Below, piece after piece: positions 16,762-38,889 of a stretch of 64,000 bases of DNA (its first letter is position 1; every line of letters begins with the position of its first letter). This DNA comes from Nitrospirales bacterium. GTDB taxonomy: Bacteria; Nitrospirota; Nitrospiria; Nitrospirales; UBA8639. The notes under the pieces are model-generated. The model did not search any database. It had not been told where the DNA came from and worked only from the letters and a program-made list of their open reading frames with translations. A program made the position numbers and the translations under genes. The stretch lies in the NCBI GenBank assembly GCA_963555755.3, contig OY820905.2, positions 2,272,001 through 2,336,000 of the forward strand, in the 5' to 3' direction.

Positions 16762-16800
16762 TGTATACTGGTGGATACGCCTCTGTATCTAAAAGATACA
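16762..16800. promoter_or_regulatory. Tandem palindromic activator-like sites (TGTATC-N5/6-GATACA)
   Basis: TGTATACTGGTGGATACG and TGTATCTAAAAGATACA, the second ~139 bp upstream of the sigma54 GG. Confidence 0.6.
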
Positions 16801-16921: not shown

Positions 16922-16936
16922 TGGCATGAGCTTTGC
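16922..16936 (+). promoter_or_regulatory. Sigma54 -24/-12 promoter
   Basis: TGGCAT-GAGCT-TTGC. Confidence 0.72.
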
Positions 16937-17105
16937 TTCTATAAATTAATAGGGATGACTCAATTTTCTTGGTGGAGAAAATGCCAATGTTCCTGACACG
17001 GAAGCACATGTCCTTACGTCTGAAAAATGTTGTGGTCTACCGAAGACACAAACATTACCGACGTATTACAGGCAAGGAAATTAAAGTCTTGACATTAGTG
17101 TGTAC

Positions 17106-18191
17106 CTTGCTTATCCTGTTTGCACACCAACGTACTACCTATAGTAGATTGGCCGTAGATACATGAGCGCAATGATCCCAATCCCCGTTGTAATGGCCTC
17201 GATACGTGGGGCCGGGCACCTTCAGGCCGATACCCAATAGGGAAGCGAAAGCCGGCATCGGGTAAAAGCGACGGTTGAACCGGAATACGAATTCATTCAG
17301 AGAGGCCGACAGGTGTTGCGTGCTGACGCTATGGTGAGTTTCCATCAGCCCAGTCGTCAGATTCGAGAAGGCGATGTGGATCATAGGGAGGTGGATATCG
17401 GGTTTCTCGCGATCGCCATTGCGCATCATGGGCTCGTGCGCGTACCCCAATTGTGTCAGATTGTCGTAGCCGCCCCATCCGTCGGTGCGCACCCTGGCGC
17501 CCGTGACTACGCTCTCCTGCACGAACCCCGTGAGCGGTTTGGCCCCGCGGTTTGGCACGAGACACAAGCGCAACCTTCCTGCGTAAACGGCTCGGTGGGG
17601 CTGTTTGCCATCAACGCCGAGCGGCCGAGGGCGAACTTCGATGGCACCAGCAACCATCGATTGATGGTGGACGCCACGTCCTTTGCCCTTGGTGCGCCCA
17701 CCCCCCAGCGTTTCAGCCACCTCGACTGGCCAATCTGCGCCAATCCGGTCTCGGTTGGGGCGAACCATGCCAGCGCGGAGCTTGTGGAGCATCTGGAATG
17801 CGGTCTCGTAGCGAGTCAGTCCAAGCTGGCGCTGAAGCTGCACCACAGACACGCCGGGCGTTTGCATCGTCACCAGATACGCGCCCAAAAACCACGCCTG
17901 CAAGGGCGTCCTTGTCGCAGGCATGACGGTGCCAGCGGTCAGCGCCACATCACTGTGGCAATGTCGGCATCGAATCATCCGTGGTCTCGTGACGATGCGC
18001 TGCGCCTTGCTGCTCACGCCGCACGTTGGGCACGCAAATCCGTCCGGCCACCGGATGGCCGCAAGAGAGGCCGCACACGCCATTTCGCTGGGACACATCT
18101 GTTGCAACTCAAGCAACGACTGGGGGTGGCGAATGTCCATGACGATCATACCCTCCCTATAGCGTGAGGGTGTGTCAACCGGATAAGCAAG
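17106..18191 (-). mobile_element. IS1595-family element, mutated copy 1 (transposase ~18149-17139)
   Basis: IRs CTTGCTTATCC...GGATAAGCAAG; 8-bp TSD GTGTGTAC; RWPDGF Zn-ribbon, TDG, LNEFVFRFNRR; first catalytic D reads as A (VEVAET). Confidence 0.92.
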
Positions 18192-18369
18192 GTGTGTACT
18201 TCTTAGAATTATACCCCTACGTACATAAACAAATTCATCTTTACTGGTGACACACGTCACAGATTTTTCCGACACGTTGGTAGTAAGTAGACATACATGC
18301 ATCTCATACGGCATGAGGCATTGACCCCAATTCACTCCGCACGCTTTAAGACAAGCAGAAGGAGGTTCC

Positions 18370-18744
18370 ATGAGCGTGAATGCTTCGCTAAGGAAGGCAA
18401 GGCTGGAATCCACACGGTCCGTGAGGAAGACCACTACCCCTCGGATACGCATACGGCCAGTTGTGGCATTAGCCCCTAATGGCTCTGTAGACCATTGCTT
18501 GAAATGTCAAGGCTGGATGATTGTCCAAGAAATCGATTTTTCTAAAAAAATCGAAATGCGTTGCCTGAATTGCGGATGGCAACCTCAGTATGGCGAGCGA
18601 GTGATTCAAGAAACGGAGGAAGCACGCTCGATTAGGAGATTTACCTCGGAGCTATTTGGAGGGGTAGCCGGGGATCTTCCAACTACTCCCCTAGAGGCTT
18701 CGTTTCAACAAATTGATTTTTCGAAACGCGCGAAGCGCCGGTAA
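18370..18744 (+). CDS. Small Zn-ribbon protein (CLKC...CLNC)
   Basis: AGGAGG RBS; two CxxC motifs. Confidence 0.75.
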   Translation: MSVNASLRKARLESTRSVRKTTTPRIRIRPVVALAPNGSVDHCLKCQGWMIVQEIDFSKKIEMRCLNCGWQPQYGERVIQETEEARSIRRFTSELFGGVAGDLPTTPLEASFQQIDFSKRAKRR

Positions 18745-18902
18745 GGGCTCGCGCAAGAATAACTTCCCTTGTTTGGGTGTTGAGGCACCTGTCTGGCAAG
18801 GCGCGAGGACTGCGCATACTCCTCGTATGGAAAGGACGAGCAACGCCGCCAGACGGGATGGATCGACGCCCAAACATGGGAAGTTATTCTTGCGCGAGCC
18901 CT
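18744..18902. mobile_element. MITE family B copy at a stop codon
   Basis: TIRs as above; begins within the TAA of the upstream gene. Confidence 0.85.
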
Positions 18903-19016: not shown

Positions 19017-19076
19017 AGGGGCTGGGGACACAACATGCCATCGCGAAGCCGGAGGCATGTTGTGTCCCCAGCCCCT
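19017..19076. terminator. Perfect 23-bp inverted repeat (hairpin, possibly a terminator)
   Basis: AGGGGCTGGGGACACAACATGCC...GGCATGTTGTGTCCCCAGCCCCT. Confidence 0.5.
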
Positions 19077-19208: not shown

Positions 19209-20177
19209 TTGCTCTATTTTTATCGAATAGGCCTCTCTCCTCCTTCCGCATTCCTTTTCACCCTCAAGCTTGCTGTAATTTTCACACTGACCGCCTATCT
19301 AGGCATGGGCACGCAAGCATCAGCTTGGGGCCAAGACATCGTCATTCTCAAATCCGCCGACGTGGGTCCCTATAACGCGGCGGCTTCCTCCTTCAAAGAG
19401 ACACTCTCTCCCGAGGTCAAGATTTTGGAGTATGACCTCCAGGGAGGCCTTGCCCAAGGACGAAAGCTTGGCCGGAAAATCCGGGCCTCCCCAGCCAAAC
19501 TCGTGGTAGCCATTGGTCTCAAAGCGGCCCTGGCCGCCAAACTGGAAATCCTCGATATCCCCATTATCTCTTGTATGGTGTTGGCTCCTACCAAGTACAA
19601 TCTCACCCGGGACAACATGACAGGCGTCAGCCTTAGAATTCCTATCAAAAACCAGTTTACGTTGCTCCAAAGCCTCGTTCCCGGCTTGAAGCGGATCGGG
19701 GTCCTATTTGATCCCACAAAAACGAAGCACACCGTTCAACAGGCCAAAGCTTTGGCCTCAAAGCAAGGGTTACAGTTGCTTGCCCGGCCCGTGTCCTCTC
19801 CCCAGGATGTTCCAGCCATGTTGCGAGCGCTGCTGCCCAACATTGACGTGTTGTGGCTCATTCCCGACAGCACGGTGCTAACTGAAGATTCTCTGGACTT
19901 TCTGTTGAGTACGACATTAGAAGCACGAATCCCGATATTGGGATTTTCTTCTGGCCTGGTCCGAAGCGGGGTTCTCGCCGGGTTGTATATCAACTATACC
20001 AAGGTTGGTGAGCAGGTCGCTGGACTCGCAGAGAAACTTCTGAAGGGGGAATCTATTCCTCAAGGCACCCTTCTTCCTCCTGAACACGTGAGCTTAGCGA
20101 TTAATCGTCAAATCGCACAGTACTTCGGCATTACCGTTCCCCCACAACTGTTAGCCGATGCTGAAGAGGTGTATTAA
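19209..20177 (+). CDS. ABC-type substrate-binding family protein (orphan, kinase-associated)
   Basis: Signal peptide, KRIGVLFDP, LWLIPDSTV, SLAIN; start uncertain. Confidence 0.85.
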   Translation: MLYFYRIGLSPPSAFLFTLKLAVIFTLTAYLGMGTQASAWGQDIVILKSADVGPYNAAASSFKETLSPEVKILEYDLQGGLAQGRKLGRKIRASPAKLVVAIGLKAALAAKLEILDIPIISCMVLAPTKYNLTRDNMTGVSLRIPIKNQFTLLQSLVPGLKRIGVLFDPTKTKHTVQQAKALASKQGLQLLARPVSSPQDVPAMLRALLPNIDVLWLIPDSTVLTEDSLDFLLSTTLEARIPILGFSSGLVRSGVLAGLYINYTKVGEQVAGLAEKLLKGESIPQGTLLPPEHVSLAINRQIAQYFGITVPPQLLADAEEVY

Positions 20178-20199
20178 CCATGAGACGGTTGCATCAGCC

Positions 20200-22476
20200 A
20201 TGACGAGTGACACTCAACAACCCGAACCTATTCGAATGGTGAGTTTACGAACCAAGTTTATTGTATTCATTAGTGTCATCATTGTTGCGGTGTGTTCTGG
20301 CCTCAGTTGGTATGTTGTCAATCAGCAATCCCAAATCATGGTCCAAGCCTTAAGGAAAATCGGCCTGGTGATCGTGAAAAATTTGGCCTATAACAGTCGC
20401 TTTCCGCTGATTGCCAAAGACACTATGTCTTTGGAACGGTTATTGGATGGGGCCTTGAAGATCGACGAAGTGGTGTATGTGATCATGACTGACCCCCAAG
20501 GGGTCCCCCTGGTGGCCAAGAGCAAGGGGGCTCTCCGGGCCGGAAGGCGAACACGGATCGCGGAAAGCCCCGTGTATCCGGATAGCCACATCGTTCAATC
20601 ATTGCTGGCCATTTCACACTCCGATCCCGTCATTATTTCGTTCAAAAGCGATACCCAGCCAGGCACAGGTCCTGACACCTCATCTTCACCATGGTGGAAT
20701 CTGCAATTCACCGATCAGACTGAACTGCTGTACGATTTCGCCATCCCTGTACGCCGACGCATATCCTCCGACCCATTATTGGGCCCTCTTGTGTTGGAAC
20801 AACAGGAAAATATTGTGGGATCGGAGTTCTCGGGTCCGCCCGGAAGCCCGATCCATGGAATCGTGCAGGTTGGAATCAGCAACGAAAAAATGATTCAACA
20901 GCTCAACGACCTGGTGCGGAATATTGTCCTCATCACGGTCTTAATTATCATGCTAGGAATTATGGCTACCGCGGTATTAGCCAACCGTATCATCAATCCA
21001 CTCCGGAGTTTAGCTGAGGTTGCCAAAAAGGTCTCAACTGGAGACTTTTCCGTCTCTCTGGAGCCCACCACACAGGATGAGGTGGGTGAATTAACGACCG
21101 TGTTCAACACGATGACACAAGCCATTCGCGATCGGGAGCAGGCGATCTCGGCCCAAGTCGCCACGATCACCAAACATGCAAATAAATTAACCACGCTCAA
21201 CCAAACGGGTTCTGCCATCGCCTCACATTTGGATCTGAACACCCTCCTCAGTACGGTGTTGCACCTCCTCGTTGAAAAAGTCGGGTTTACACACATGTTG
21301 CTCATGCTCTACGACCGTGATCGAGGAATTGCGCATAAAGGACAAACCGCAGGCATTTCAGAAGACCTCGATGCCCATGTTCGGTCCCTCGAAATCTCGA
21401 TTCGCGAGGATGGCACCATTCATGCCGATCTCTTGCTTCACGGAGAGGCCTTTTTCGTTCCGAAGATTGATGTGGTGAGTGCTCGCATGGATCCGAAGAT
21501 TCGCGCGGTTCTTCAGGAACTCGGCACGACATCTTTTGTGTGTGCGCCACTGAATAGCCAGCAACACATCATGGGGTTTATTACCGCAGATAGTACCCCA
21601 CAAACTTGTACGCAGGAAGATCTGGAATTGTTAATTACCATCGCGAACACTGTGGGCGTGGCTATTGATAATGCCCGGGCCTATCAGGAATTGGAACAAT
21701 TAAATATTACGCTGGAACAACGAGTCGAGGAACGCACGCATGAACTCACCGAAGCGAATGTGAAGTTACAGGAGCTGGATCAGCTCAAATCGGTGTTTGT
21801 CACCATCGTCTCCCACGAGCTTCGGACGCCCATGACCTCGGTCAAAGGGCTTGTGGAAAACATGCTTGATGGCTTAACCGGCGAGTTAACCGAGCGGCAA
21901 ACGTTTTATTTAAGTCGAGTCCGAGCCAATGTGGAACGGCTGACTCGAATGATCAACGACCTACTGGATTTATCTCGAATCGAAGCCGGGCGGATGGATC
22001 TCATTCCTGTTACCCTTTCCATGCCCGAATTAATCACCGAGGTTACCGAGAACTTGCAAGATATGGCCACCGAACATGGCCTCACGTTGACGATCGCCCA
22101 AGCTCATGCAATTTCGCCGGTTCGAGGCGACCTGGATAAAATGAGTCAAGTGCTCACGAATTTGGTCCATAACGCCATTAAATTTACTCCCCCCAATGGG
22201 AGCGTCCAAATAAGCGTGGTCAATAAGGACGATCAGTGGGTTCAAGTCTGTGTTGCGGACACGGGATGTGGCATTCCTCAGGAGGAACTGGAAACCATCT
22301 TTGAACGGTTCTATCGCAGTCCATCCAGCCCGCATCAATCCAAGGGTGCCGGCCTGGGCCTGGCCATTACCAAAAGCCTTGTGGAGCTACATGGCGGAAA
22401 GATCTGGGTCGAAAGCATCCAAGGAAAATGGACAAAATTTTTCATTACGGTTCCCGTCCATGGTTCTGCCAAATGA
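20200..22476 (+). CDS. Membrane histidine kinase (HAMP, GAF, HisKA, HATPase)
   Basis: QDEVGEL, AIDNARAY, SHELRTPM, DTGCGI, GAGLGL. Confidence 0.93.
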   Translation: MTSDTQQPEPIRMVSLRTKFIVFISVIIVAVCSGLSWYVVNQQSQIMVQALRKIGLVIVKNLAYNSRFPLIAKDTMSLERLLDGALKIDEVVYVIMTDPQGVPLVAKSKGALRAGRRTRIAESPVYPDSHIVQSLLAISHSDPVIISFKSDTQPGTGPDTSSSPWWNLQFTDQTELLYDFAIPVRRRISSDPLLGPLVLEQQENIVGSEFSGPPGSPIHGIVQVGISNEKMIQQLNDLVRNIVLITVLIIMLGIMATAVLANRIINPLRSLAEVAKKVSTGDFSVSLEPTTQDEVGELTTVFNTMTQAIRDREQAISAQVATITKHANKLTTLNQTGSAIASHLDLNTLLSTVLHLLVEKVGFTHMLLMLYDRDRGIAHKGQTAGISEDLDAHVRSLEISIREDGTIHADLLLHGEAFFVPKIDVVSARMDPKIRAVLQELGTTSFVCAPLNSQQHIMGFITADSTPQTCTQEDLELLITIANTVGVAIDNARAYQELEQLNITLEQRVEERTHELTEANVKLQELDQLKSVFVTIVSHELRTPMTSVKGLVENMLDGLTGELTERQTFYLSRVRANVERLTRMINDLLDLSRIEAGRMDLIPVTLSMPELITEVTENLQDMATEHGLTLTIAQAHAISPVRGDLDKMSQVLTNLVHNAIKFTPPNGSVQISVVNKDDQWVQVCVADTGCGIPQEELETIFERFYRSPSSPHQSKGAGLGLAITKSLVELHGGKIWVESIQGKWTKFFITVPVHGSAK

Positions 22477-22726: not shown

Positions 22727-24925
22727 ATGCAGCATTCCTTCGAACAAAAAAACATCCAGGGATGGAACCTAGAAACAGCAGTTGGATCACAAAAGTCCGC
22801 GCAAGCTCTTGGCCCGCCTGGCAAAATAAAAAAATGCCTCATCACCACCGAGGTGACCACGACTTTTTGTATTTCACCATGCACGCCAATATCTTACACG
22901 TCTGTTTTGCGCCCAACCGCCGTTTCTAGGTTGAAAGCGGTAACTACCGGTTTTCTGAAGTATTTGGGATTGTGGGTGTGGTGTTCAACCCTTTTCCTGC
23001 TCCCACCAGCTGTTGGTGCCAACCCAGCACCCCAAGCTGCCCCCCCTCAAAGCTCCTCAGATCAGGCCTTGGATGATCTACGATTCCTTCAGGAAGAAAC
23101 CGTGAGCATTGCCGTCTTACACGAGCAACCCATCTCTGAAGCACCCTCGAGTGTCTATGTTATTACCGATGAAGACATCCGGCACTCCGGTGCCACAGAC
23201 CTTCCCACGGTTCTTCGTCGGGTACCCGGCATGGAAGTCATTCAAATGACCAGCGCAGACTTTAATGTCAGTGTTCGTGGGGACAATCAACTGCGAGCCA
23301 ATAAGCTGCTCGTGTTAATCGACGGACGTTCCATCTACGAAGATATTCAGGGCGAGGTCTTCTGGAAAATGATTCCCGTGACATTACCTGAAATTAAAAA
23401 GATTGAAATACTCAAGGGTCCCGCATCTGCCGTGTATGGGTTTAATGCTTTCGACGGTGTGATCAACATCATCACCAAGTCTCCGGAGGAAATGAAAGGG
23501 GTGCACGTGCAATTTGGTGGAGGGGAATTGGGCACCATTTCCAGTGCCGCGATCTATGCCGGAAAATACGATAAGCTGGGATACCGCATTTCAATCGGGC
23601 GAAATCAAACCAATCAATGGGAATCCAGAAGTAGCTTAGGGTTCCGAGTGCACAAGTTTAATGTGCAAACTGAGTACGACCTTTCCAATTTTGCCAACTT
23701 ATCAGTCTCTGGTGGGCTTGCGGATGCGAATCGGTACGATGGTCCGGTAACATCTTTGCTGACAATCCAAGGAGAACCGTCACAAGCCTATACGAAGGTC
23801 GAATATAAGCGACCGAACCTTTTTCTGAGAGCCTATTGGAACCGATCCAGCGTCCCCAATATGCTTCAAACCAATCCCCTCCTTCCAAGTTTTTTTACTA
23901 TCACCGACACAAACGGCAGCTCTATGCAATCTCGGAAATGGAATAGTTACAATTTTTCTGGACAGCATGCCCTGGAATTTGGATCCACCAACCGGCTGAC
24001 CTATGGCATGGACTATCGCCATAATTCAGTCTCAAGCAATTTCCTTGATGGATTCAGCCGCGAAAATCGATTCGGCGTCTATATACAGGATGAGTGGAAG
24101 ACCACTGAAAGTCTGACTGCAACTGGAGGCATTCGCGTAGATCTCCACACTGAAATCAATCCCACCTACAGCCCACGTTTCGCCCTAATTTACAGATTGC
24201 TCCCAAATCACACACTCCGAGGAACGATTGCCTTAGCATTTCGTCCGCCAACGATTTTCGAAACCCACACTGACACAAGAGCCGCGGCTTTCGGATTTGT
24301 TACTGGAACTCTTTCCGGGTCAAAACTCTTAAAGCCAGAAAAAATGATTTCTTACGAAATCGGCTATCAGGGTTGGTTTTTCAGGCACCGTTTGCGAGCC
24401 AGGATAGATCTCTTTTTCAACCATATATCAGACTTGATCAATTCGACGGGTGGTACGGGTGGTGCGGCTCTTGTATTCACCAATGCTGGGGAAGCAGATA
24501 TCTATGGCGGTGAAGCCGGGATTGAATTTTGGCCTCTCCCTTGGCTAAGCGGTTTTGCCAACTATTCGTTTCAAAACATTGACCAGACCTTCTCTGGAAC
24601 TTCCCGGCGCGCTGGGCCAGACTTTAAGGTCAATGCTGGACTCCGAGGAGAATGGGAAAATGGTTTCACTACAGAAGTTGTTCTTCATCACGTGGCTGGA
24701 GCCACATATCCCATCAGTAGTACTTTTGGTGTATTTGGAGCGACCCTCAACCCCAGAGTTGATAGTTATACCTTAATCAACTTTCGTGGAGGATATCGAT
24801 TTTGGAAGGACCAACTCGAACTGGCGATTTCAATTTTTAACGCATTGAATGATAAACACCAAGAGCATCCACTTGGAGAAATTATTGACTCGCGCGTAAT
24901 GGGTTGGATAACCCTTAGGTATTAA
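22727..24925 (+). CDS. TonB-dependent receptor
   Basis: Plug domain (EAPSSVYVITDEDIRHSGA, LVLIDGR, IEILKGPASAVYG, GVINIITK), beta-barrel, terminal aromatic residue. The ORF start runs through MITE D; the true start is probably near 22967. Confidence 0.92.
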   Translation: MQHSFEQKNIQGWNLETAVGSQKSAQALGPPGKIKKCLITTEVTTTFCISPCTPISYTSVLRPTAVSRLKAVTTGFLKYLGLWVWCSTLFLLPPAVGANPAPQAAPPQSSSDQALDDLRFLQEETVSIAVLHEQPISEAPSSVYVITDEDIRHSGATDLPTVLRRVPGMEVIQMTSADFNVSVRGDNQLRANKLLVLIDGRSIYEDIQGEVFWKMIPVTLPEIKKIEILKGPASAVYGFNAFDGVINIITKSPEEMKGVHVQFGGGELGTISSAAIYAGKYDKLGYRISIGRNQTNQWESRSSLGFRVHKFNVQTEYDLSNFANLSVSGGLADANRYDGPVTSLLTIQGEPSQAYTKVEYKRPNLFLRAYWNRSSVPNMLQTNPLLPSFFTITDTNGSSMQSRKWNSYNFSGQHALEFGSTNRLTYGMDYRHNSVSSNFLDGFSRENRFGVYIQDEWKTTESLTATGGIRVDLHTEINPTYSPRFALIYRLLPNHTLRGTIALAFRPPTIFETHTDTRAAAFGFVTGTLSGSKLLKPEKMISYEIGYQGWFFRHRLRARIDLFFNHISDLINSTGGTGGAALVFTNAGEADIYGGEAGIEFWPLPWLSGFANYSFQNIDQTFSGTSRRAGPDFKVNAGLRGEWENGFTTEVVLHHVAGATYPISSTFGVFGATLNPRVDSYTLINFRGGYRFWKDQLELAISIFNALNDKHQEHPLGEIIDSRVMGWITLRY
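22766..22932. mobile_element. MITE family D (AACCTAGAAAC...GTTTCTAGGTT)
   Basis: Copies at 30124-30290, a minimal 44-bp form at 34386-34429, and partial copies at 58194-58238 and 62040-62081. Confidence 0.8.
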
Positions 24926-24978: not shown

Positions 24979-25017
24979 TGTATCTAAAAAGATAAACTCT
25001 GTATCTAATTGGATACA
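24979..25017. promoter_or_regulatory. Tandem palindromic activator-like sites (TGTATC-N6-GATA(A/C)A)
   Basis: TGTATCTAAAAAGATAAA and TGTATCTAATTGGATACA, the second 138 bp upstream of the sigma54 GG. Confidence 0.6.
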
Positions 25018-25136
25018 AATTCTCCTCATAATTTTAACATATGATTTTGTAGTACAAAAATACCTATTCTCCCTCTAACTGTTTAAAACTTCAAAGAAAT
25101 TTTTCGTCTCACGCCTATGAATGGGATAAAAAAACT

Positions 25137-25151
25137 CGGCACGAATTTTGC
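25137..25151 (+). promoter_or_regulatory. Sigma54 -24/-12 promoter of the RiPP cluster
   Basis: CGGCAC-GAATT-TTGC. Confidence 0.72.
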
Positions 25152-25317
25152 GTATGCGTAATAAGAATATTGAAAGGTCTCTCATTCCCAATAGAATTTA
25201 AAGGGTGAAAATCCATCCCCATTTCGAGAAACTCGATTGAGAGTACGAACGAGAAGACCTGGAAAGTAGGCTGGTGTTTCATTTATTATTCACTTTTTCA
25301 TTTTTGGGAGGTTCATC

Positions 25318-25512
25318 ATGCAAACCGTATCATCTCCTCAGCTCTCTATCGAGCTTGAAGATATAAATTCGGTGGAGACGGCTTTTCAGCCAGCACTGAA
25401 TGACTTAGGACTGCGCAACTGGAAAACGGGTCATGGGTTACCTGCAATGTGTACCTGCCAGTGTTGTTGCTCGTGTTGTGCGGCATCAGGTGAAGAACTC
25501 CTTTCAGAGTAG
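25318..25512 (+). CDS. RiPP precursor peptide (Cys-rich core CTCQCCCSCC)
   Basis: GGGAGG RBS; acidic leader ending in GHGLPAM; 7 Cys in 10 residues; directly upstream of ThiF-like/YcaO/SagB genes. Confidence 0.85.
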   Translation: MQTVSSPQLSIELEDINSVETAFQPALNDLGLRNWKTGHGLPAMCTCQCCCSCCAASGEELLSE

Positions 25513-25778
25513 TGGGGCTCACCGTTTCCAACTGGCCTTGTTTCTGCTTTGTACAAACTTTACGGTTCACGGTGCACCAGTAAAGATCGTGTTAAAGCCA
25601 AAAGCAGGGTAGGTTTTTTTAGGAATTTTTGGATCTTGGTGAGAAGTGGAAGATACTCCCCACTTCTCCGGGTCCTGACACAAAGGGCTCCAATGATACC
25701 TTTTTTTTTATTTCATAAAAATTAGGTTTTCACACACGAGGCTGTGGCTATTCAGTTTAAAGAAATAGGACTCAAACC

Positions 25779-26873
25779 ATGACACCTGTCAATAGTGATC
25801 AAACGCTTTCCTCGTTGCCCGTTAAAATAATCCCCACCAAAAAAGGTGTCATCCTCAAGCGCGGATGCACCGAAGTACAAATTCGAGGGGAAAACATCGG
25901 TGCAATTATTGAGCAGATTTTCTCGATTTCAACAAAAAATAGGGTGACCAAAGACTTACTAGTAGAATACTTTTCCCCAGAAGTTCAGCCCGCTGTTGCC
26001 AAATTGGTCGATCAGTTCATTGAGCGCCGGTTTTTGGTTCCACATGCTTTTGACGATTCTCAAATGGAGTCTCATGAAGACAACACGGACATTTTTTATT
26101 GGCACTTCGATCAAACGAAAGCGGAAATCAGCCAACGATTGGATGCTCAGAAAATCACGATAGTTGGGGTCAATTACATTTCACGGCAACTTGCCATTTC
26201 CCTTAGTGAATCTGGGTTTACTCAGGTTGAAGTGGTCGACGAGCCTGGGTTACGAAATCTTCGGTTTTTCGACCCTCCCAGAGAATTACAGCTGCACCAT
26301 TGGCCGACTCCTTTGCGAACACCCGTAGCAATGAAACAGTGGGAAGCCGAGGCAGATCTCAACTCATTGGATTGCATTATTGCCACTTCAGATTTTGGTT
26401 CAGCTCCTATCCTGCGTGAATGGAACACGTATTGCATTCACCATAATCTTCGATTCTTTCCCATTGTATTGTCCAATATGATTGGCTACATCGGGCCACT
26501 CGTGATTCCACAAGAAACGGCCTGTTTCGAATGCCTCTTGGCTCGACAGAATTCGCATCTCAGTGACCCCAGCAGGAAACAGACAGTGGATCAGGTCGCC
26601 TTTGATAGCCAGAACATTGTAGGGTTCCATCCATCCATGGCGTCCATCTTAGGAGACATTGCTGCCATGGAGATGACCAAGTTCTATAGTCAATCCATGC
26701 CGTTGTGGAATGTGGGAAAACTCATCGAAGTGAACCTTTTGTCCTCTCGGATGACTCCCAGGAAAGTCCTGAAAATTCCTCGTTGTCCGGTTTGTAGTCC
26801 CTTACGCACACGTTCCGCTGTCACCCCTGACAAACCCTATTCACATTTTAGTTTTTCCCAGGCGCAATCATGA
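25779..26873 (+). CDS. TOMM leader-binding ocin-ThiF/E1-like cyclodehydratase partner
   Basis: wHTH-like N-terminus, YIGPLVIPQETACFECL, KVLKIPRCPVC. Confidence 0.88.
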   Translation: MTPVNSDQTLSSLPVKIIPTKKGVILKRGCTEVQIRGENIGAIIEQIFSISTKNRVTKDLLVEYFSPEVQPAVAKLVDQFIERRFLVPHAFDDSQMESHEDNTDIFYWHFDQTKAEISQRLDAQKITIVGVNYISRQLAISLSESGFTQVEVVDEPGLRNLRFFDPPRELQLHHWPTPLRTPVAMKQWEAEADLNSLDCIIATSDFGSAPILREWNTYCIHHNLRFFPIVLSNMIGYIGPLVIPQETACFECLLARQNSHLSDPSRKQTVDQVAFDSQNIVGFHPSMASILGDIAAMEMTKFYSQSMPLWNVGKLIEVNLLSSRMTPRKVLKIPRCPVCSPLRTRSAVTPDKPYSHFSFSQAQS

Positions 26874-28204
26874 TGATCACCCGGAACTCTTCATTTCACC
26901 GTCTTGCCAACATCGTGGATGACCTAGTCGATGAACACGTTGGCATAGTGAAATACGTCAAAGAATTCCGTCGGGAATCCGGAATGCCCGACTTCTTCTG
27001 CTATTACGCCAAGGCCTGTAACACCCTGGCCTTTGGCCCATTCAAAAATTTTTCGAATACCGGGGGGGCTTCTGCCTTTAGAGAACTTGCGATGGCCAAA
27101 GCCATTGGAGAGGCAGTGGAGCGTTATTGCTCTGCTATTTATGATAAAGAATCCTTGCCCTTGATTTCATTTCGTGATGCGTCATTCCCCTGCATCGTTC
27201 CAGAAGAATTTGCGTTGTATGACGATGAACAATATTGTCAACCGGATTTCCCGTATATTCCGTTTACCCACGCTACTCCTGCCCGATGGACCCCAACTAT
27301 TGATCTCACAACGGATGAGACCTGGTATGTGCCGGCGGCAACGGTGTTTATGCCCTTTTGGTATGACGAAAAAAATGGAGAGCCCCCCATTGTCCAACCG
27401 ATTTCTACAGGTTTGGCCTGCCACTGTAGTTATGAAGAAGCCGCAATTTCCGCGATTTGTGAGGTCATTGAACGGGATGCCTTCATGATGACTTGGCAAG
27501 CGTGTCTTTCCAGGCCTCAAATTCTTATCGATTCCTTGAGTCTCAACAACCAAGACCTGGTTTCTCGATTCGAGCGAACGGGAAATTCAATTTTTCTCTT
27601 CCATTTGGCTATGGATCATGATGTTCCCATAGTGTTGGCTGTAGCTCGGTGCTCTGCAGAAGACGGGCCTGCCTTGTGTTTCGCGGCTTCAGCAGATTTA
27701 GATCCGGAAGATGCCGTTCGAAAAAGTCTCGAAGAATTGGCTCATACCCGTCGGTTGGCCCAAGGATTAAAATCAAATTTGCCCAGTATTGTGGCCGAGG
27801 CCGATTTTGAGGCCGTCAGTCATCAGGATGCACACCTACGATTTTACGGGGACCATGTGAACAGTCACTTCGCCGACTTTCTTTTTTCCTCGGAGGACCG
27901 AGTGGCTTTTCAAGAAATCAAACGTCCATTTGAAGGTGACACTCAAAATAATCTCCGAGACCTGATTGACCAGGTTCGCTCTGTGAACCATCGAGTTCTG
28001 CTGGCTGATCTTACAACCTCCGACGTCGGTGATCTGGGGCTTTCGGTGGTTCGGGCGGTGATTCCGGGATTCCATCCGTTGTTTATGGGACATGCGATCC
28101 GCTCACTTGGTGGAACCCGATTATGGGAGGTTCCCCAACGCATAGGACACCCTGGTGTGACTCGGGAAGGAGGAGACAACCCGGCTCCTCACCCTTATCC
28201 GTAA
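26870..28204 (+). CDS. YcaO cyclodehydratase (azoline-forming type)
   Basis: KAIGEAVERY, STGLAC, EVIERDA, ELAH, VVRAVIPG, Pro-rich C-terminus PAPHPYP. Confidence 0.93.
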   Translation: MMITRNSSFHRLANIVDDLVDEHVGIVKYVKEFRRESGMPDFFCYYAKACNTLAFGPFKNFSNTGGASAFRELAMAKAIGEAVERYCSAIYDKESLPLISFRDASFPCIVPEEFALYDDEQYCQPDFPYIPFTHATPARWTPTIDLTTDETWYVPAATVFMPFWYDEKNGEPPIVQPISTGLACHCSYEEAAISAICEVIERDAFMMTWQACLSRPQILIDSLSLNNQDLVSRFERTGNSIFLFHLAMDHDVPIVLAVARCSAEDGPALCFAASADLDPEDAVRKSLEELAHTRRLAQGLKSNLPSIVAEADFEAVSHQDAHLRFYGDHVNSHFADFLFSSEDRVAFQEIKRPFEGDTQNNLRDLIDQVRSVNHRVLLADLTTSDVGDLGLSVVRAVIPGFHPLFMGHAIRSLGGTRLWEVPQRIGHPGVTREGGDNPAPHPYP

Positions 28205-28272
28205 ACCGTATCTCGTATTTCGTTCTTTCACGAGATGAGGACGACGTTTTTCTTAAAAAATGAGGTGATTTT

Positions 28273-29091
28273 ATGAATATGGATATATGGAATGAGTTGG
28301 TGCTCCCTTCCGCTACAGAGGACGTAGCTTGGGAGTTGTTTCACGAAAATTCAAAGCTTGGTCGGTATTTCGCAGCCTTGTCAGAAGAACAGGTGGTGCA
28401 AAAAACCAAAGAACTCCACGAGTCATTGCCCTATGAAGGGTATCCTAAGGTGGAATTACCAGCACTACTGGCAACTCCAACATCTTCGCTATACGAGGCA
28501 ATTCTGAATAGAATGTCTGTCAGAAATTTTGCTCCTCGCTCATTTTCATTAGAAGAAATTGCGACCTTGTTGCACTATGCCTATGGCACGACCCGGGATA
28601 ATGAGGGCACTAACCTTCCCAGGCCATTTCGAGCAGTTCCCTCTGGAGGAGCGCTCTACCCCTTGGAAATTTATTTTCATTGCGTGGACGTCAAAGGACT
28701 TGTCCCGGGGCTGTATCACTACAATGCGGCTGGTCATCATATTCGCTGCCTTAGCGAAGGCGACCAGCGAAAAACTATTGCCGAGTCCATCATTCAACCG
28801 GATGTGGCCTTGGAAAGTTCACTCATGATCTTTATTACCGCCATGTTTGAACGGACGGTTTTTAAATATGGAGACCGGGGGTACCGATTCACATTCCTGG
28901 AAGCGGGTCATGTGGCCCAAAATATGAATTTGATGGCCACGGCGCTCGAACTCGGATGCGTCAATATCGGAGGATTCTATGACCGGGATGTGGATGCGTA
29001 TTTGGGACTGGACGGCATCATGCATTCTACGATTTACCTCATGGCAATCGGAGAACCAACCTGTTCTGAGTCTATCGATGAAAAGACCTAA
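28273..29091 (+). CDS. SagB/ThcOx FMN-dependent azoline dehydrogenase
   Basis: RMSVRNF, RAVPSGGALYPLEIY, KYGDRGYRF, EAGHVAQN, IGGFYD. Confidence 0.93.
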   Translation: MNMDIWNELVLPSATEDVAWELFHENSKLGRYFAALSEEQVVQKTKELHESLPYEGYPKVELPALLATPTSSLYEAILNRMSVRNFAPRSFSLEEIATLLHYAYGTTRDNEGTNLPRPFRAVPSGGALYPLEIYFHCVDVKGLVPGLYHYNAAGHHIRCLSEGDQRKTIAESIIQPDVALESSLMIFITAMFERTVFKYGDRGYRFTFLEAGHVAQNMNLMATALELGCVNIGGFYDRDVDAYLGLDGIMHSTIYLMAIGEPTCSESIDEKT

Positions 29092-29654: not shown

Positions 29655-30077
29655 ATGACATTTTCCGTGAGCATCCCAATCCATCCCAAAATTCTCACTG
29701 TTGATGACGACCCGGATATCGGGATTGCCCTGACGGATTTTTTGAAGCAAGAAGGGTATGCGGTCACTATGGTTGAGACTGGCCACGCCGCTATCGAAGT
29801 CTGTGAACACCATCAATTTCAGGCGGTGATTTTAGATTTAGGTCTTCCAGATTGTGACGGGTTGGAGGTGTTAACCCATATGCTGAACCGTGACCCTGGG
29901 CTTCCGGTCATTATCCTGACCGCCTATTCATCTCTCGAGCGATACACCCCTAAAGCAGAGCAGACCCGGGCATTTGCTTATTTGTTGAAACCATTCAATC
30001 GCAAGGAACTCAAAAAAACCATTCGTCGAGCCATTCAAACTCGCCCTCTGCCACACACGGATACGAAGCCTGCTTAA
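29655..30077 (+). CDS. Single-domain response regulator (receiver)
   Basis: ILTVDDD, ILDLGLPDCDG, IILTA, AYLLKPF. Confidence 0.9.
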   Translation: MTFSVSIPIHPKILTVDDDPDIGIALTDFLKQEGYAVTMVETGHAAIEVCEHHQFQAVILDLGLPDCDGLEVLTHMLNRDPGLPVIILTAYSSLERYTPKAEQTRAFAYLLKPFNRKELKKTIRRAIQTRPLPHTDTKPA

Positions 30078-30123
30078 CATGGGCCATCCATCTTGAATCC
30101 GATTTCGCTGGTGGTTTCACTTA

Positions 30124-30627
30124 AACCTAAAAACAGCAGTTGGATCACAAAAGTCCGCGCAAGCTCTTGGCGCACCTCGCAAAAGAGAAAAATGTCTCAT
30201 CACCACAAAGGTGACCACGACTTTTTCTCTTTCACGATGCACAGCAATATCTTACACGTCTTTTTTGCGCCCAACTGCTGTTTCTAGGTTAAACACGGCA
30301 GTTGAAAATCCCTTTTCCTTTCGATTGCCACCGTTCCCACGGCGCTCAGGGGAACGGACCTTCAAACAATGGGTGACGGTCACGCCACTCCGTTCGTGCC
30401 GAGTCCTGAGTTTGTCGAAGGGTCGAAGCATGAACCTGATTGCAAATCTTGGACAGGCTTCTAGGAGGCTGTCCGACATTAGGGATCATCGCGAGATTGC
30501 GCTGGTTTGAGGCAGCTTTTTCGATCGTTTGAGGCGAATAGTGGTGACTATTTAACGAAAACGATCGGAAAAGCTGGCCAAATTCAGCGCAATCGCAGTA
30601 GATCCGCTAATCTTGGACAGGCTTCTA
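30124..30627. mobile_element. Cluster of MITE D, a REP-like unit and MITE C
   Basis: D at 30124-30290; CTGAGTTTGTCGAAGGG unit; C at 30462-30627. Confidence 0.7.
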
Positions 30628-35356: not shown

Positions 35357-36432
35357 AATAAGTGCACCACCTTCACGGTTGGCTAGCTGGTATATTCTCT
35401 GGCCGACCAAAGGAGGCGGTCCCAAGATGACACAACGTTATACTCAGCTGACCGAACCTGAGCGCTACCACTTGTACACGATGCGAAAGCCAACCACACC
35501 CTTTCGAGAGATTGCGAAGGGAATGGGGCGATCCCACACCACCCTGAGTCGGGAGGAAACGCGGAATACCGGCCAGCGGGGCTATCGCGACCAACAAGCC
35601 CAGCAGAAGGCGGGCCAGCGACACACGGACAAGCCCAAAGCCGTGAAGCTGACGGAGTCGGTGCTGGCGTATAGTCACGAGAAACTTCACGCCTGGTGGA
35701 GTCCAGAGCAAATATGTGGACGCGTGGGGCTCGAGCAGGGCGTCTCGTTACGCCCAGAAACGATCTATCGCGTGGGGCTGAAAGACCCGCAGCAAGGCGG
35801 GCAACTCTATCGGCACGTGCGCCACCACGCCACGCCGTACCGCAAGCGCTATGGCCGCAAGGAATATCGGGGACGCATCCCGGGCCGAGTCGATATTGCC
35901 GAGCGTCCGACCGTCGGGGACACCCAAGCACGGGTCGGCGATTGGGAAGCCGATTTAGTGATCGGCCGCGGGCATAACGGGGCCATCGTGACGCTGGCCG
36001 AGCGACGGTCTCGGCTCTATCTGGCGCTGCCGAGCGTGCGCAAAACCGCGGACTGGACCACACGGGCGATCCCCTCACTGTTCGCGGCGTTTAAGGACTG
36101 GACCCCCACCATCACCTCTGACAATGGCCGAGAGTTCAACGGCCACGCCACCATTGCCAAGGCCTTGGACTGCCAGGGCTTCGTTGCTCGCCCGTACCAC
36201 AGGTGGGAGCGAGGCTTACACGAGAATAGCAACGGGCGGCTCCGACAGTATTTTCCCAAGGAGATGCCACTCGACACGGTGTCCACGGAAGCGGTCACTG
36301 CCGCCGTGGAGGCCATGAATCATCGACCCCGGAAATGCTTGGGGTTTTAAACGCCTTGGGACGTGTTCTCGCGACTCACTCAATCAAATATTCAATTGAA
36401 AACCTGTGGTGCACTTATGGGTTGAATTCGCC
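35344..36432 (+). mobile_element. IS30-family element, mutated (transposase 35427-36350, premature stop)
   Basis: IRs GAATTC...ATAAGTGCACCAC / GTGGTGCACTTAT...GAATTC; WSPEQI, GDWEADLV, DNGREF, WERG, RQYFPK, NHRPRKCLGF. Confidence 0.9.
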
Positions 36433-36531
36433 GATTTAAACAATCGACACTATTTGGTTTTTTAATTTAAGGAACTTTTGGTCTCATAATTATTAGTTTT
36501 CGGCCGCCGGTTCGATTTCTACCGGGCCCGA

Positions 36532-36929
36532 TTACTGGAATTGTCTTTTGCGGTTGGCCTTCTGGAGCAATTGTTTCATTTCCTTGATTTGAAGAGGCGT
36601 CTCATTAATCTGGATAATTCCTTCCGGTTGGAACTGAAAGGTGTATCCATAAAGGTGCGCATCGCCTTTCGGCAATACAATGTCCTGTCCCAGGCCTTCC
36701 AGAAGGAGGAGGAAGGGAATGCCTGGTATCAATTTCGGTTGGGTGTGGCGGGCATCGAGCAGGGTCAGCAAAAGCGGACCAATTCCATGAATCTCGCTTG
36801 TCACCTGTCCATGGATGGGGATTTGAGCTTCGGGGTCCGAGAGCTGTAATTGGCCACGAATCTTGATGTGGCTGTTCGGGTTTGAGGCGGTTAGGGTATC
36901 CAACTCCAAACGTGGTGCGGCGCGATAAA
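36532..36929 (-). pseudogene. C-terminal part of the gene interrupted by IS1595 (continues 38817-40358)
   Basis: Removing the IS, the 884-bp duplication and one TSD copy restores ...KEI-IYRAAPRLELDTLTASNP... in frame. Confidence 0.8.
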
Positions 36930-36937
36930 TAATTTCT

Positions 36938-37949
36938 TATGCCTTCCCATTTAACTAAGGTTGCTTCAGTTTATTGAATCCCAAGGGTTTTGAGCTGCTG
37001 GTCAGGATTTTCAACAAACTCTGGAAGGTACTCATTGGAGTCTCACGGCGGTTATAGCGAAAGACAAACTCATCAAGATAGTGTTGCAGGTATTTTGAAT
37101 CCACTCCATGGTGAATCCCGTTCAGCCAGGTCTGCAGATTGCCGAACGCTCTATGGATGTGTGGAGCGTGCTTCCCAGCACTTGCTGGGTCACCCTGGGT
37201 CCGTCTCAGGTGTTCGTATCCTGCCAAGGCTTTTGCCGAGTATCCCTTCCAACCATCGGACTTGATCTTACTGCCCTCAGCGACATGGCTATTGAGGAAT
37301 GCTTTGATCTCGTTCTCTCCAGCGTCTTGAAGAATCGCTAATCGTAAACGCCCTGCTTTCTCTCGAAAGTGATCCCCTTGTGTGTACGTGACAATTTCTA
37401 CGGCTCCGGCTATTAACGTCTTGGTTTTCGCTTTCGCGACGCCACGGCCCGTTTTGCCTTTTACCGGTCCACCGATATGGGTTTCATCGGCTTCAACTGT
37501 TCCTGCGAGCCGTTCACGGTTCTGTCGTACCATTCCTCGTCGCAATCTGTGGAGCAAATACCAGGCGCTATCCACCTTCTTGATACTGAGTTGACGCTGC
37601 AATTGCACAGCACTGATGCCAGGTGTGTGCGTGGAGACGAAATAGGCAGCCCAAAACCAAAGCCGTAGCGGCAAGTGCGATCTATGCATCACTGTGCCGC
37701 TTAGCGGTGATGTCTGTCTATGACACGACGAACACTCAAACCGGAAATATTTTTTGAGCCACCAACCACCGCGATGACCGCAAGCTGGACACATAAACCC
37801 GTCTGGCCACCGAATCGCCCGCAAGTACTCGAAGCACGCTTCTTCGGTGTGGAACCTAACAGAAAAATCCAAGATATCAGCAGCATACCCTGTGTCCATA
37901 GTCCAGCAGACTAGTCTAGGGACTAACCTTAGTCAAATGGGAAGGCATA
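36938..37949 (-). mobile_element. IS1595-family element, apparently intact (transposase 37899-36955)
   Basis: 23-bp IRs TATGCCTTCCCATTT(A/G)ACTAAGG; 8-bp TSD TAATTTCT; VEADET, SDG, LDEFVFRYNRR. Confidence 0.93.
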
Positions 37950-38004
37950 TAATTTCTTTTGTACGGCTATCCACTGGTTCGACCGGACCGGAGGAAACCC
38001 CTTC

Positions 38005-38889
38005 TTCAGCCAGGTCTGCAGATTGCCGAACGCTCTATGGATGTGTGGAGCGTGCTTCCCAGCACTTGCTGGGTCACCCTGGGTCCGTCTCAGGTGTTCG
38101 TATCCTGCCAAGGCTTTTGCCGAGTATCCCTTCCAACCATCGGACTTGATCTTACTGCCCTCAGCGACATGGCTATTGAGGAATGCTTTGATCTCGTTCT
38201 CTCCAGCGTCTTGAAGAATCGCTAATCGTAAACGCCCTGCTTTCTCTCGAAAGTGATCCCCTTGTGTGTACGTGACAATTTCTACGGCTCCGGCTATTAA
38301 CGTCTTGGTTTTCGCTTTCGCGACGCCACGGCCCGTTTTGCCTTTTACCGGTCCACCGATATGGGTTTCATCGGCTTCAACTGTTCCTGCGAGCCGTTCA
38401 CGGTTCTGTCGTACCATTCCTCGTCGCAATCTGTGGAGCAAATACCAGGCGCTATCCACCTTCTTGATACTGAGTTGACGCTGCAATTGCACAGCACTGA
38501 TGCCAGGTGTGTGCGTGGAGACGAAATAGGCAGCCCAAAACCAAAGCCGTAGCGGCAAGTGCGATCTATGCATCACTGTGCCGCTTAGCGGTGATGTCTG
38601 TCTATGACACGACGAACACTCAAACCGGAAATATTTTTTGAGCCACCAACCACCGCGATGACCGCAAGCTGGACACATAAACCCGTCTGGCCACCGAATC
38701 GCCCGCAAGTACTCGAAGCACGCTTCTTCGGTGTGGAACCTAACAGAAAAATCCAAGATATCAGCAGCATACCCTGTGTCCATAGTCCAGCAGACTAGTC
38801 TAGGGACTAACCTTAGTCAAATGGGAAGGCATATAATTTCTTTTGTACGGCTATCCACTGGTTCGACCGGACCGGAGGAAACCCCTTCT
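38005..38889. repeat. Second unit of an apparently exact 884-bp tandem duplication (partial IS1595 plus 56 bp of flank)
   Basis: 37121-38005 matches 38005-38889; the ORFs repeat with an offset of 884. Confidence 0.9.

Follow-up and report, generated by a model that had tools for sequence, protein, structure and literature searches.

Linear azole-containing peptides, or thiazole/oxazole-modified microcins (LAP/TOMM; microcin B17 and the streptolysin S-type B/C/D systems), are the natural frame for the locus described here, a four-gene operon in a 64,000-nucleotide stretch of a Nitrospirales genome (assembly GCA_963555755.3, contig OY820905.2, positions 2,272,001 to 2,336,000 of the forward strand; this whole stretch is called the window). 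Like LAP/TOMM loci, the operon has a separate C protein, a YcaO protein with a Pro-rich end, a SagB and a Cys-rich precursor gene upstream. Unlike them, it has no NCBIfam precursor match and no exporter or immunity gene, and instead shows a dedicated receptor clade, a sigma54 enhancer circuit and, across its relatives, a set of interchangeable genes (DyP, HExxGH, amine oxidase, methyltransferase, TfuA-YcaO). The cyanobactin heterocyclases TruD, MusD and LynD are the closest solved YcaO structures (E 1e-12 to 1e-11), and some members of the present family share with cyanobactins a small-then-acidic follower after the core, but here the C and D proteins are unfused and PatA/PatG proteases are absent from the scanned Nitrospirales loci. 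Thiomuracin and GE2270 (precursors TbtA and PbtA) are resembled, in the genus of the window, by a GHG shortly before a CxC..CC core, but the LanB pair, the pyridine synthase, Ser1 and the Lx4F motif are missing and the E1 protein is not of the ocin-ThiF type. On the regulatory side, LuxP-LuxQ-LuxO is a relay of binding protein, kinase and sigma54 activator, and agr is a peptide pherotype system. The locus has a periplasmic binding protein, a PAS/Cache kinase and a sigma54 activator as in the former and a variable peptide beside its receptor as in the latter; it differs in that the variable partner is an outer-membrane receptor, and the likeness is one of layout, the kinase hits being generic. 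The srp/mpr proteusins of sponge microbiomes (core LCCCW) also have short Cys runs, often near Trp, that become thiazol(in)es (available text of PMC10286304), and their leader motif LTEEQL/ITEEQL has the spacing of the motif found here (available text of bioRxiv 2023.06.09.544420, in whose main text the word TonB is absent). Unlike them, the present loci have no nitrile-hydratase-like leader, nor is there a halogenase in those scanned.

The operon represents an undescribed family of linear azole peptides whose Cys-rich cores are short and hypervariable and whose tailoring genes can be exchanged. Chemically it is of a known type; the family, the receptor clade that belongs to it and the enhancer circuit are new to the literature searched, in which no account of them was found (supplements and subscription journals were outside the scope, and a genome-mining table may list them). 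The terms RiPP (a peptide made by the ribosome and modified after translation), YcaO and antiSMASH are all absent from the main texts of PMC10579370 and PMC12342949. We propose, at a probability of about 0.45, that the operon makes a strain-variable, autoinducer-like thiazole-peptide signal that is caught by the dedicated TonB receptor encoded next to it.

The operon and its enzymes

The comparison covers 35 loci left after removal of 9 duplicates or near-duplicates (L036, L061-L067, L072), of which 31, the window included, were treated as Nitrospirales (L071 by synteny and tree only) and 4 are distant others. Also used were 40 receptor loci without YcaO and, for order-wide counts, 301 genomes from 41 genera. 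L-numbers denote loci and G-numbers genomes, G000 being the genome of the window (4.62 Mb, 99.4% complete, a single YcaO gene). A preliminary description of the window, made from its sequence, had reported four genes, a hairpin and a sigma54 site, and all of these are present, the genes at the places it gave, with every frame open. The operon consists of the following.

25318..25512, + strand: precursor of 64 residues, with leader motif at residues 11-19 (25348-25374), GHG at 38-40, core Cys45-Cys54 (25450-25479) and acidic follower 55-64
25641..25668, + strand: RNA hairpin in the 266-bp spacer, 9-bp stem, conserved in the genus
25779..26873, + strand: E1/ThiF-like partner (C protein), PF00899, two CxxC pairs, likely leader-binding
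26870..28204, + strand: YcaO cyclodehydratase, PF02624, ExxERD motif, Pro-rich C-terminus ending in PHPYP
28273..29091, + strand: SagB-type flavin mononucleotide-dependent dehydrogenase, PF00881 nitroreductase, Lys-Tyr pair

The YcaO scores 289.9 bits against TIGR03604 (cut-off 219), which together with ExxERD and PHPYP places it among the azoline-forming YcaO proteins of LAP/TOMM systems. SagB keeps the KY motif and reaches 156 bits against the dehydrogenase model TIGR03605 (cut-off 78), and the E1-like partner 44 bits against the LAP/TOMM partner model TIGR03882 (cut-off 36.9). The name ocin-ThiF given earlier to the E1 is not its best label, since the SagC-type model TIGR03603 scores higher (103.7 bits) than the ocin-ThiF model TIGR03693 (21.7 bits), both being below their cut-offs. 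A predicted precursor-E1 complex scored 0.53 against 0.01 for the best control, which lends weak support to binding of the leader, since scores of 0.60 or less include only 5 of 78 solved complexes and all 4 of the 180 mismatches that passed. The runs had at least 44% of their contacts in common and a partner pLDDT (predicted local distance difference test) of at least 43, no interface being given.

The spacer had been called structured, and its 266 bp and 9-bp stem are borne out, while the folding of the spacer as a whole is modest (z -2.14, with 8 of 200 shuffles doing as well). The hairpin is kept in 4 of 4 loci of the genus, with compensatory changes on both sides at 3 of 7 pairs, and would likely set the level of precursor mRNA above that of the enzymes. 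Scans for sigma70 promoters and terminators gave counts at chance level. Exact-match contigs of two metatranscriptome runs from one study cover parts of the precursor, E1, YcaO and SagB genes and were considered as RNA proof of expression. They do not show it, because a control stretch is covered as often (24/30 vs 19/30 bins in X17, at stricter identity), and for the same reason the gap in these contigs over the receptor gene carries no meaning.

The precursor and the thiopeptide question

The seven Cys of the precursor lie at positions 45, 47, 49, 50, 51, 53 and 54, and the sequence confirms both the 10-residue acidic follower and the lack of a leading Ser in the core. The leader had been described as thiopeptide-like. 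This stands for the single sequence, whose best match in the PDB is the GE2270 precursor PbtA (E 0.006), and does not extend to the family: a 12-member family profile misses PbtA at E<=10, and of the 36 precursors 3 contain GHG, each from this genus, whose fourth member lacks it. Metagenome loci add further genus-type GHG copies and one GHG within an unrelated long leader. The recognition motif of TbtA and PbtA is Lx4F (available text of PMC12710340), which the window precursor does not have, Ser18 standing where Leu is needed. The thiopeptide-like leader is thus incidental. What the family does share is a leader motif of the form hydrophobic-[TSKDE]-x-x-[DE]-hydrophobic-x-x-hydrophobic, present in 34 of 36 precursors against 1.7 in shuffles and, in the window, at residues 11-19; the count of 34 is partly circular, as the pattern was derived from the same sequences and aided the picking of some Cys-poor precursors.

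The likeness of the single precursor to PbtA would also suit a split or thiopeptide-derived cluster, with dehydratase and pyridine synthase acting from elsewhere in the genome. As reported at the outset, neither enzyme was found: PF04738 (LanB dehydratase) and PF14028 (Lant_dehydr_C fold, pyridine synthase) are unmatched in G000 with working controls. PF04738 is matched in 0 of 301 genomes of the order, its built-in controls being silent and added controls positive in 2 of 4 other genomes, G000 not among them; for PF14028 the controls were positive in 2 of 2 genomes, and a very divergent cyclase may have escaped this search. A LanB sequence used as query gave no match in G000 at E<=1. Together with the missing leading Ser, the missing Lx4F, the rarity of GHG and the failure of the family profile to find PbtA, this largely refutes a split cluster, which we regard as very improbable, and supports the view that the product is a linear azole peptide rather than a thiopeptide.

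The family across Nitrospirales

A match to the YcaO of the window (E<=1e-40) occurs in 32 of 301 genomes of the order, from 13 of 41 genera, and in a wider database 1136 of 7997 scored proteins match at E<=1e-50, the nearest named YcaO proteins and loci being from Nitrospirales. The closest named relative of the precursor itself is from Ca. Nitronereus thalassa (73% identity over 63% of the query), and near-identical DNA is present in marine sediment metagenomes. As the preliminary description required, precursors are conserved beside orthologous YcaO genes: 36 were chosen in 34 of the 35 loci (two in each of two loci, none found in one). They have 50-170 residues and 1-8 core Cys, their core sequences differ widely, and in 9 of 9 compared pairs the precursor is less conserved than the YcaO. 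No precursor matched NCBIfam at E<=0.05 (0/36) or Pfam above cut-off (0/14), and none has the nitrile-hydratase-like leader by these models. In the genus of the window, four loci with a YcaO identity of 73-91% all have the same compact four-gene form.

Elsewhere tailoring genes follow SagB. A DyP-type peroxidase is found in 12 loci (L034, L035, L037, L038, L041, L044-L047, L049, L051, L052) and an HExxGH protein of 480-630 residues, without Pfam or NCBIfam family, in 10 of 31 (L039, L040, L048, L053, L054, L056-L059, L071), the two never together. Other loci have a methyltransferase (6), an amine oxidase (5), or TfuA with a second YcaO of thioamide type (4; L037, L038, L057, L058, two of which have single-Cys cores). 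The HExxGH gene is present in 9 of 301 genomes, always at a peptide locus, and by its motif the protein is a candidate dedicated peptidase. As a lead only, its Atlas neighbours are unnamed clusters scoring 0.97, with M48 and U49 peptidases below 0.8; a fold predicted from 4 sequences has a pLDDT of 43.7. The DyP-type peroxidase is possibly a new peptide-tailoring oxidase, and both proteins make the family a source of unstudied tailoring candidates. Homologues of DyP, HExxGH, amine oxidase and TfuA are absent from G000, whose methyltransferase matches are only distant and generic, so the form in the window is the minimal one of the family; being the smallest, it can be expressed as is.

The earlier statement that the cluster has no protease, exporter or immunity gene is correct for the window, and its protease part is a trait of this lineage, since 10 of 31 loci carry the peptidase-like HExxGH gene. 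G000 does carry TldD/E genes, and TldD/E trim microcin B17. Among ~529 neighbouring open reading frames (ORFs) there is no ATP-binding cassette (ABC) permease or exporter, only 2 having at least 5 transmembrane segments. Many LAPs are antibacterial, and a narrow-spectrum antimicrobial, made as the regulated output of a two-component system, would suit the variable cores too, as in an arms race. One antibacterial example is mentioned in the available text of PMC7298704. The lack of exporter and immunity genes in the 31 loci speaks against such a role, and a producer would not be expected to keep a dedicated import receptor beside a toxin, so that we think it quite unlikely.

The four distant loci, outside Nitrospirales, have CCC-x-P-CCC cores, mostly with a B12 radical S-adenosylmethionine gene and no receptor. 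The sister subfamily outside Nitrospirales (L068, L069, L070, L073, L135, L137, L152) is marked by CCC-x-P-CCC cores with repeated leader motifs, in most cases a B12 radical S-adenosylmethionine gene, and no TonB receptor, some members having a 700-800-residue protein of no known family. L050, from a 16-Mb assembly, shows apparent frameshifts in receptor, E1 and YcaO, which may be sequencing error or decay.

A dedicated TonB receptor

Directly upstream of the operon lies the receptor gene.

22727..24925, + strand: TonB-dependent receptor of the peptide-linked clade, PF07715 and PF00593, with a ~170-bp genomic repeat in the early ORF

A receptor stands directly upstream in 30 of 31 Nitrospirales loci, a stronger link than the preliminary description could show. 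The sole exception has just 1.7 kb of upstream DNA; wherever the flanking sequence is long enough, the receptor is there (30 of 30 loci). Receptors of this family are widespread (135 of 301 genomes, against 32 of 301 for the YcaO), and trees were therefore built with the 40 YcaO-free loci. All 27 upstream receptors of full length, which come from three families, group in a single branch that contains no peptide-free receptor and is apart from 57-61 paralogues. Support for this branch is 98 in FastTree, and by the Shimodaira-Hasegawa-like approximate likelihood-ratio test 82 with all 88 rows and 97 when four distant rows are dropped. Its sub-branches separate DyP-type from HExxGH-type clusters with 1 change, where the YcaO tree needs 3. 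Relatives of the same family that lack the peptide genes retain the gene order binding protein-kinase-regulator-receptor-activator, their receptor belonging to a different branch, so that the peptide genes and their receptor look like a module filling a slot in a resident circuit.

The ~170-bp repeat (~22761-22935, and again 30121-30293) has 103 copies of at least 140 bp in G000. The receptor ORF is lengthened at its 5′ end by one copy, and its true start probably lies downstream of that copy; sediment contigs exist without the copy at 30121. In family f2 (L045, L047, L053 and many of L074-L113) TPS-domain, DUF928 and FadL-type genes are neighbours of the receptor cassette, which suggests a wider cell-surface signalling island.

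Sigma54 promoter, palindromes and activator

Two elements precede the precursor gene.

24979..25017, + strand: two 18-bp palindromes (24979-24996 and 25000-25017, 6-bp arms), hardly varying across 4 of 4 genus loci and likely an enhancer at which a sigma54 activator acts
25137..25152, + strand: precursor promoter of the sigma54 -24/-12 type, conserved in all 4 of the genus loci

A single sigma54 match is weak alone, since the window has 7 matches where 2.45 are expected. The sigma54 control suggested earlier is supported by conservation of the site throughout the genus and by the enhancer-like palindrome pair, likewise conserved, ~120-160 bp upstream of it. In most relatives the sigma54 sites lie farther upstream of the precursor. 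Palindrome pairs 20-22 bp apart, counted by hand, precede precursor, receptor, regulator or sensor genes. They occur in 19 of the 31 peptide loci (15 of 27 when the genus that supplied the motif is set aside), in 14 of the 40 peptide-free loci and in 0 of the 4 distant ones. Single sites with up to 2 mismatches number 118 in G000 (~1 per 39 kb), and the only pair in this genome with both sites within that limit, 19-24 bp apart, is that of the precursor; the regulon list comes from this consensus scan and may be incomplete.

A gene for an NtrC-type sigma54 activator with the GAFTG motif is present in 11 of 35 loci, all Nitrospirales. Its orthologue in G000 (83%; C1:3321391-3322815) is 1 Mb from the operon, among ~14 full sigma54 activators. 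As the orthologue has been relocated and there are ~14 candidates, we infer from synteny that it is the protein acting at the palindromes. Also preceded by a palindrome, with a sigma54 motif 104 bp on, is a gene for a C92 cysteine hydrolase (permuted NlpC/P60; L119:3281-3916, G000 C1:4277780-4278415), a candidate processing or signal-degrading enzyme; of 7 genomes of the genus, 4 keep this palindrome, one of them in degenerate form, and the 4 include one that lacks the YcaO. At ~2945 of L114 (G000 C1:308744 and 308775) two perfect palindromes 31 bp apart have a sigma54 motif downstream and genes without Pfam match.

The sensor operon

The genes that would complete the circuit lie on either side of receptor and operon.

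16762..16800, + strand: palindrome-like pair upstream of the sensor operon, one site of 18 bp and one degenerate site of 17 bp, their starts separated by 22 bp, read by eye; in the same-genus locus L032 a pair with 22-bp spacing occupies the corresponding place
16922..16937, + strand: sigma54-type -24/-12 site of the sensor operon, 1 mismatch; its L032 counterpart is 352 bp before the same small gene
17104..18193, - strand: IS1595-family insertion sequence (IS) element, NF033547 149 bits, 25-bp inverted ends 17104-17128 and 18169-18193
18370..18744, + strand: small conserved gene heading the sensor operon, cluster c11, in 7 of 35 loci, no Pfam match
19209..20177, + strand: periplasmic binding protein PF04392, overlapping the kinase gene, no ABC permease nearby
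20158..22476, + strand: membrane histidine kinase with two transmembrane helices, predicted single Cache/PAS-like periplasmic domain, HAMP, GAF, HisKA and HATPase
29655..30077, + strand: single-domain response regulator, PF00072, 49% to the L046 receiver, kin of receiver-PAS proteins in related cassettes

The sCache family is matched by the kinases of 11 of 33 relatives and not by the copy in the window, whose modelled sensor domain (pLDDT 74.8) has its best predicted fold matches in the sensor domains of WalK and CitA. Synteny with receptor and binding-protein genes had been proposed for study; it is found for the receptor, while the binding protein, present in 17 of 31 peptide loci against 32 of 40 peptide-free ones, does not track the peptide.

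The IS1595 insertion before the sensor operon, together with the absence of DyP, HExxGH, amine oxidase and TfuA homologues from G000 and of the YcaO from the same-genus genome G055 (99% complete), might mean that the locus is a decaying remnant in this strain, its tailoring genes lost, its sensor operon cut off and its activator moved. The four frames and their catalytic motifs are intact, however, and 4 of 4 genus loci keep the compact form along with the enhancer, the promoter and the hairpin, so we give decay only a slim chance.

Signal or metallophore

Under the signal reading, the E1 would bind the leader motif at residues 11-19, the YcaO would cyclise some or all of the seven Cys, perhaps also Thr46 and Ser52, and SagB would oxidise the azolines at -20 Da each; such Cys runs are turned into thiazol(in)es in the LCCCW core (available text of PMC10286304). 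Enzymes encoded elsewhere, either TldD/E or the co-regulated C92 hydrolase, would cut off leader and follower, and the peptide would in some way leave the cell. The receptor would then read the peptide and relay via binding protein and Cache kinase to the NtrC-type activator, which would act at the palindromes before the sensor, receptor and precursor genes and so close a positive loop. The common palindrome at their genes would put synthase, receptor and sensor under one regulator, the link being by shared sites only.

In the rival reading that competes most directly, the product would be a metallophore made by the ribosome, or a buffer for metals (Cu, Fe, Zn), taken up by the dedicated receptor and switched on by the sigma54 system, perhaps with feedback from the loaded complex. 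The dedicated receptor clade suits it, as do contiguous azoles rich in N and S, and the TfuA-YcaO thioamide genes of 4 of 31 loci (2 with single-Cys cores) would add sulfur donors. The loci have no inner-membrane importer or FecIR-type genes, though these could lie elsewhere, and no Fur box by the E. coli consensus, which may differ in the host. A single binding geometry fits poorly with cores that have 1-2 Cys and a highly variable spacing, and the other palindrome sites of G000 lie by the C92 hydrolase, PhoD-like and unknown genes, one more, degenerate, being placed where another TonB receptor gene begins. We favour a signal over a metallophore, which we consider possible yet unlikely, since the cores are variable, neither importer nor Fur box was seen and the receptor family is tied to sensor kinases.

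Several observations weigh against the signal. The circuit also exists where the peptide genes are absent, the receptor family occurring in 135 of 301 genomes and palindrome pairs in 14 of the 40 peptide-free loci, and its ligand may be something else. Binding proteins from peptide loci do not group as a clade (6 changes, 17 against 32 rows), and on this evidence the sensor need not be peptide-specific; co-variation with the peptide is seen for the TonB receptor and not for the binding protein. Even the receptor and YcaO trees agree in part only (Mantel rho 0.58), 11 of 18 supported receptor splits being in conflict. In this strain the IS element cuts the sensor operon from its sigma54 promoter, and a stricter sigma54 scan found a site before 1 of 36 precursors, that of the window, the relaxed scan finding all four genus sites. 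Neither an exporter nor a C39 transporter peptidase was found in G000. The lack of a Fur box in the window refers to the E. coli-type consensus, which may not fit the lineage. Lastly, positive feedback through a TonB receptor occurs in siderophore systems too, so that the layout cannot separate signal from metallophore.

Nitrospirales drive nitrite oxidation in oceans, soils and wastewater, and either a peptide signal or a ribosomal metallophore would, if true, be new ecology for them. The quorum sensing described for the order is based on N-acyl-homoserine lactones (AHL) and is scarce in marine lineage IV (available text of PMC12342949). PF00765 (LuxI) is unmatched in G000, but its control matched nowhere and the result is uninformative. 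A broader and more doubtful extension is ribosomal thiazole-peptide quorum sensing in Gram-negative nitrifiers, in which swappable peptide-receptor modules on a resident relay of binding protein, kinase and sigma54 activator would create strain-specific dialects and receptor-only cassettes would eavesdrop or read other ligands. If so, it would provide a cell-cell signal for marine lineages where AHL synthases are rare.

Other elements near the sensor operon

The IS1595 element at 17104-18193 has an apparent 8-bp target duplication, and further IS1595 and IS30 copies are present at 35379-38783. Between the small gene and the binding-protein gene lie two near-perfect inverted repeats, at 18744-18902 and 19017-19076 (40- and 23-bp arms), which are probably repeat elements given their deep coverage in sediment DNA.

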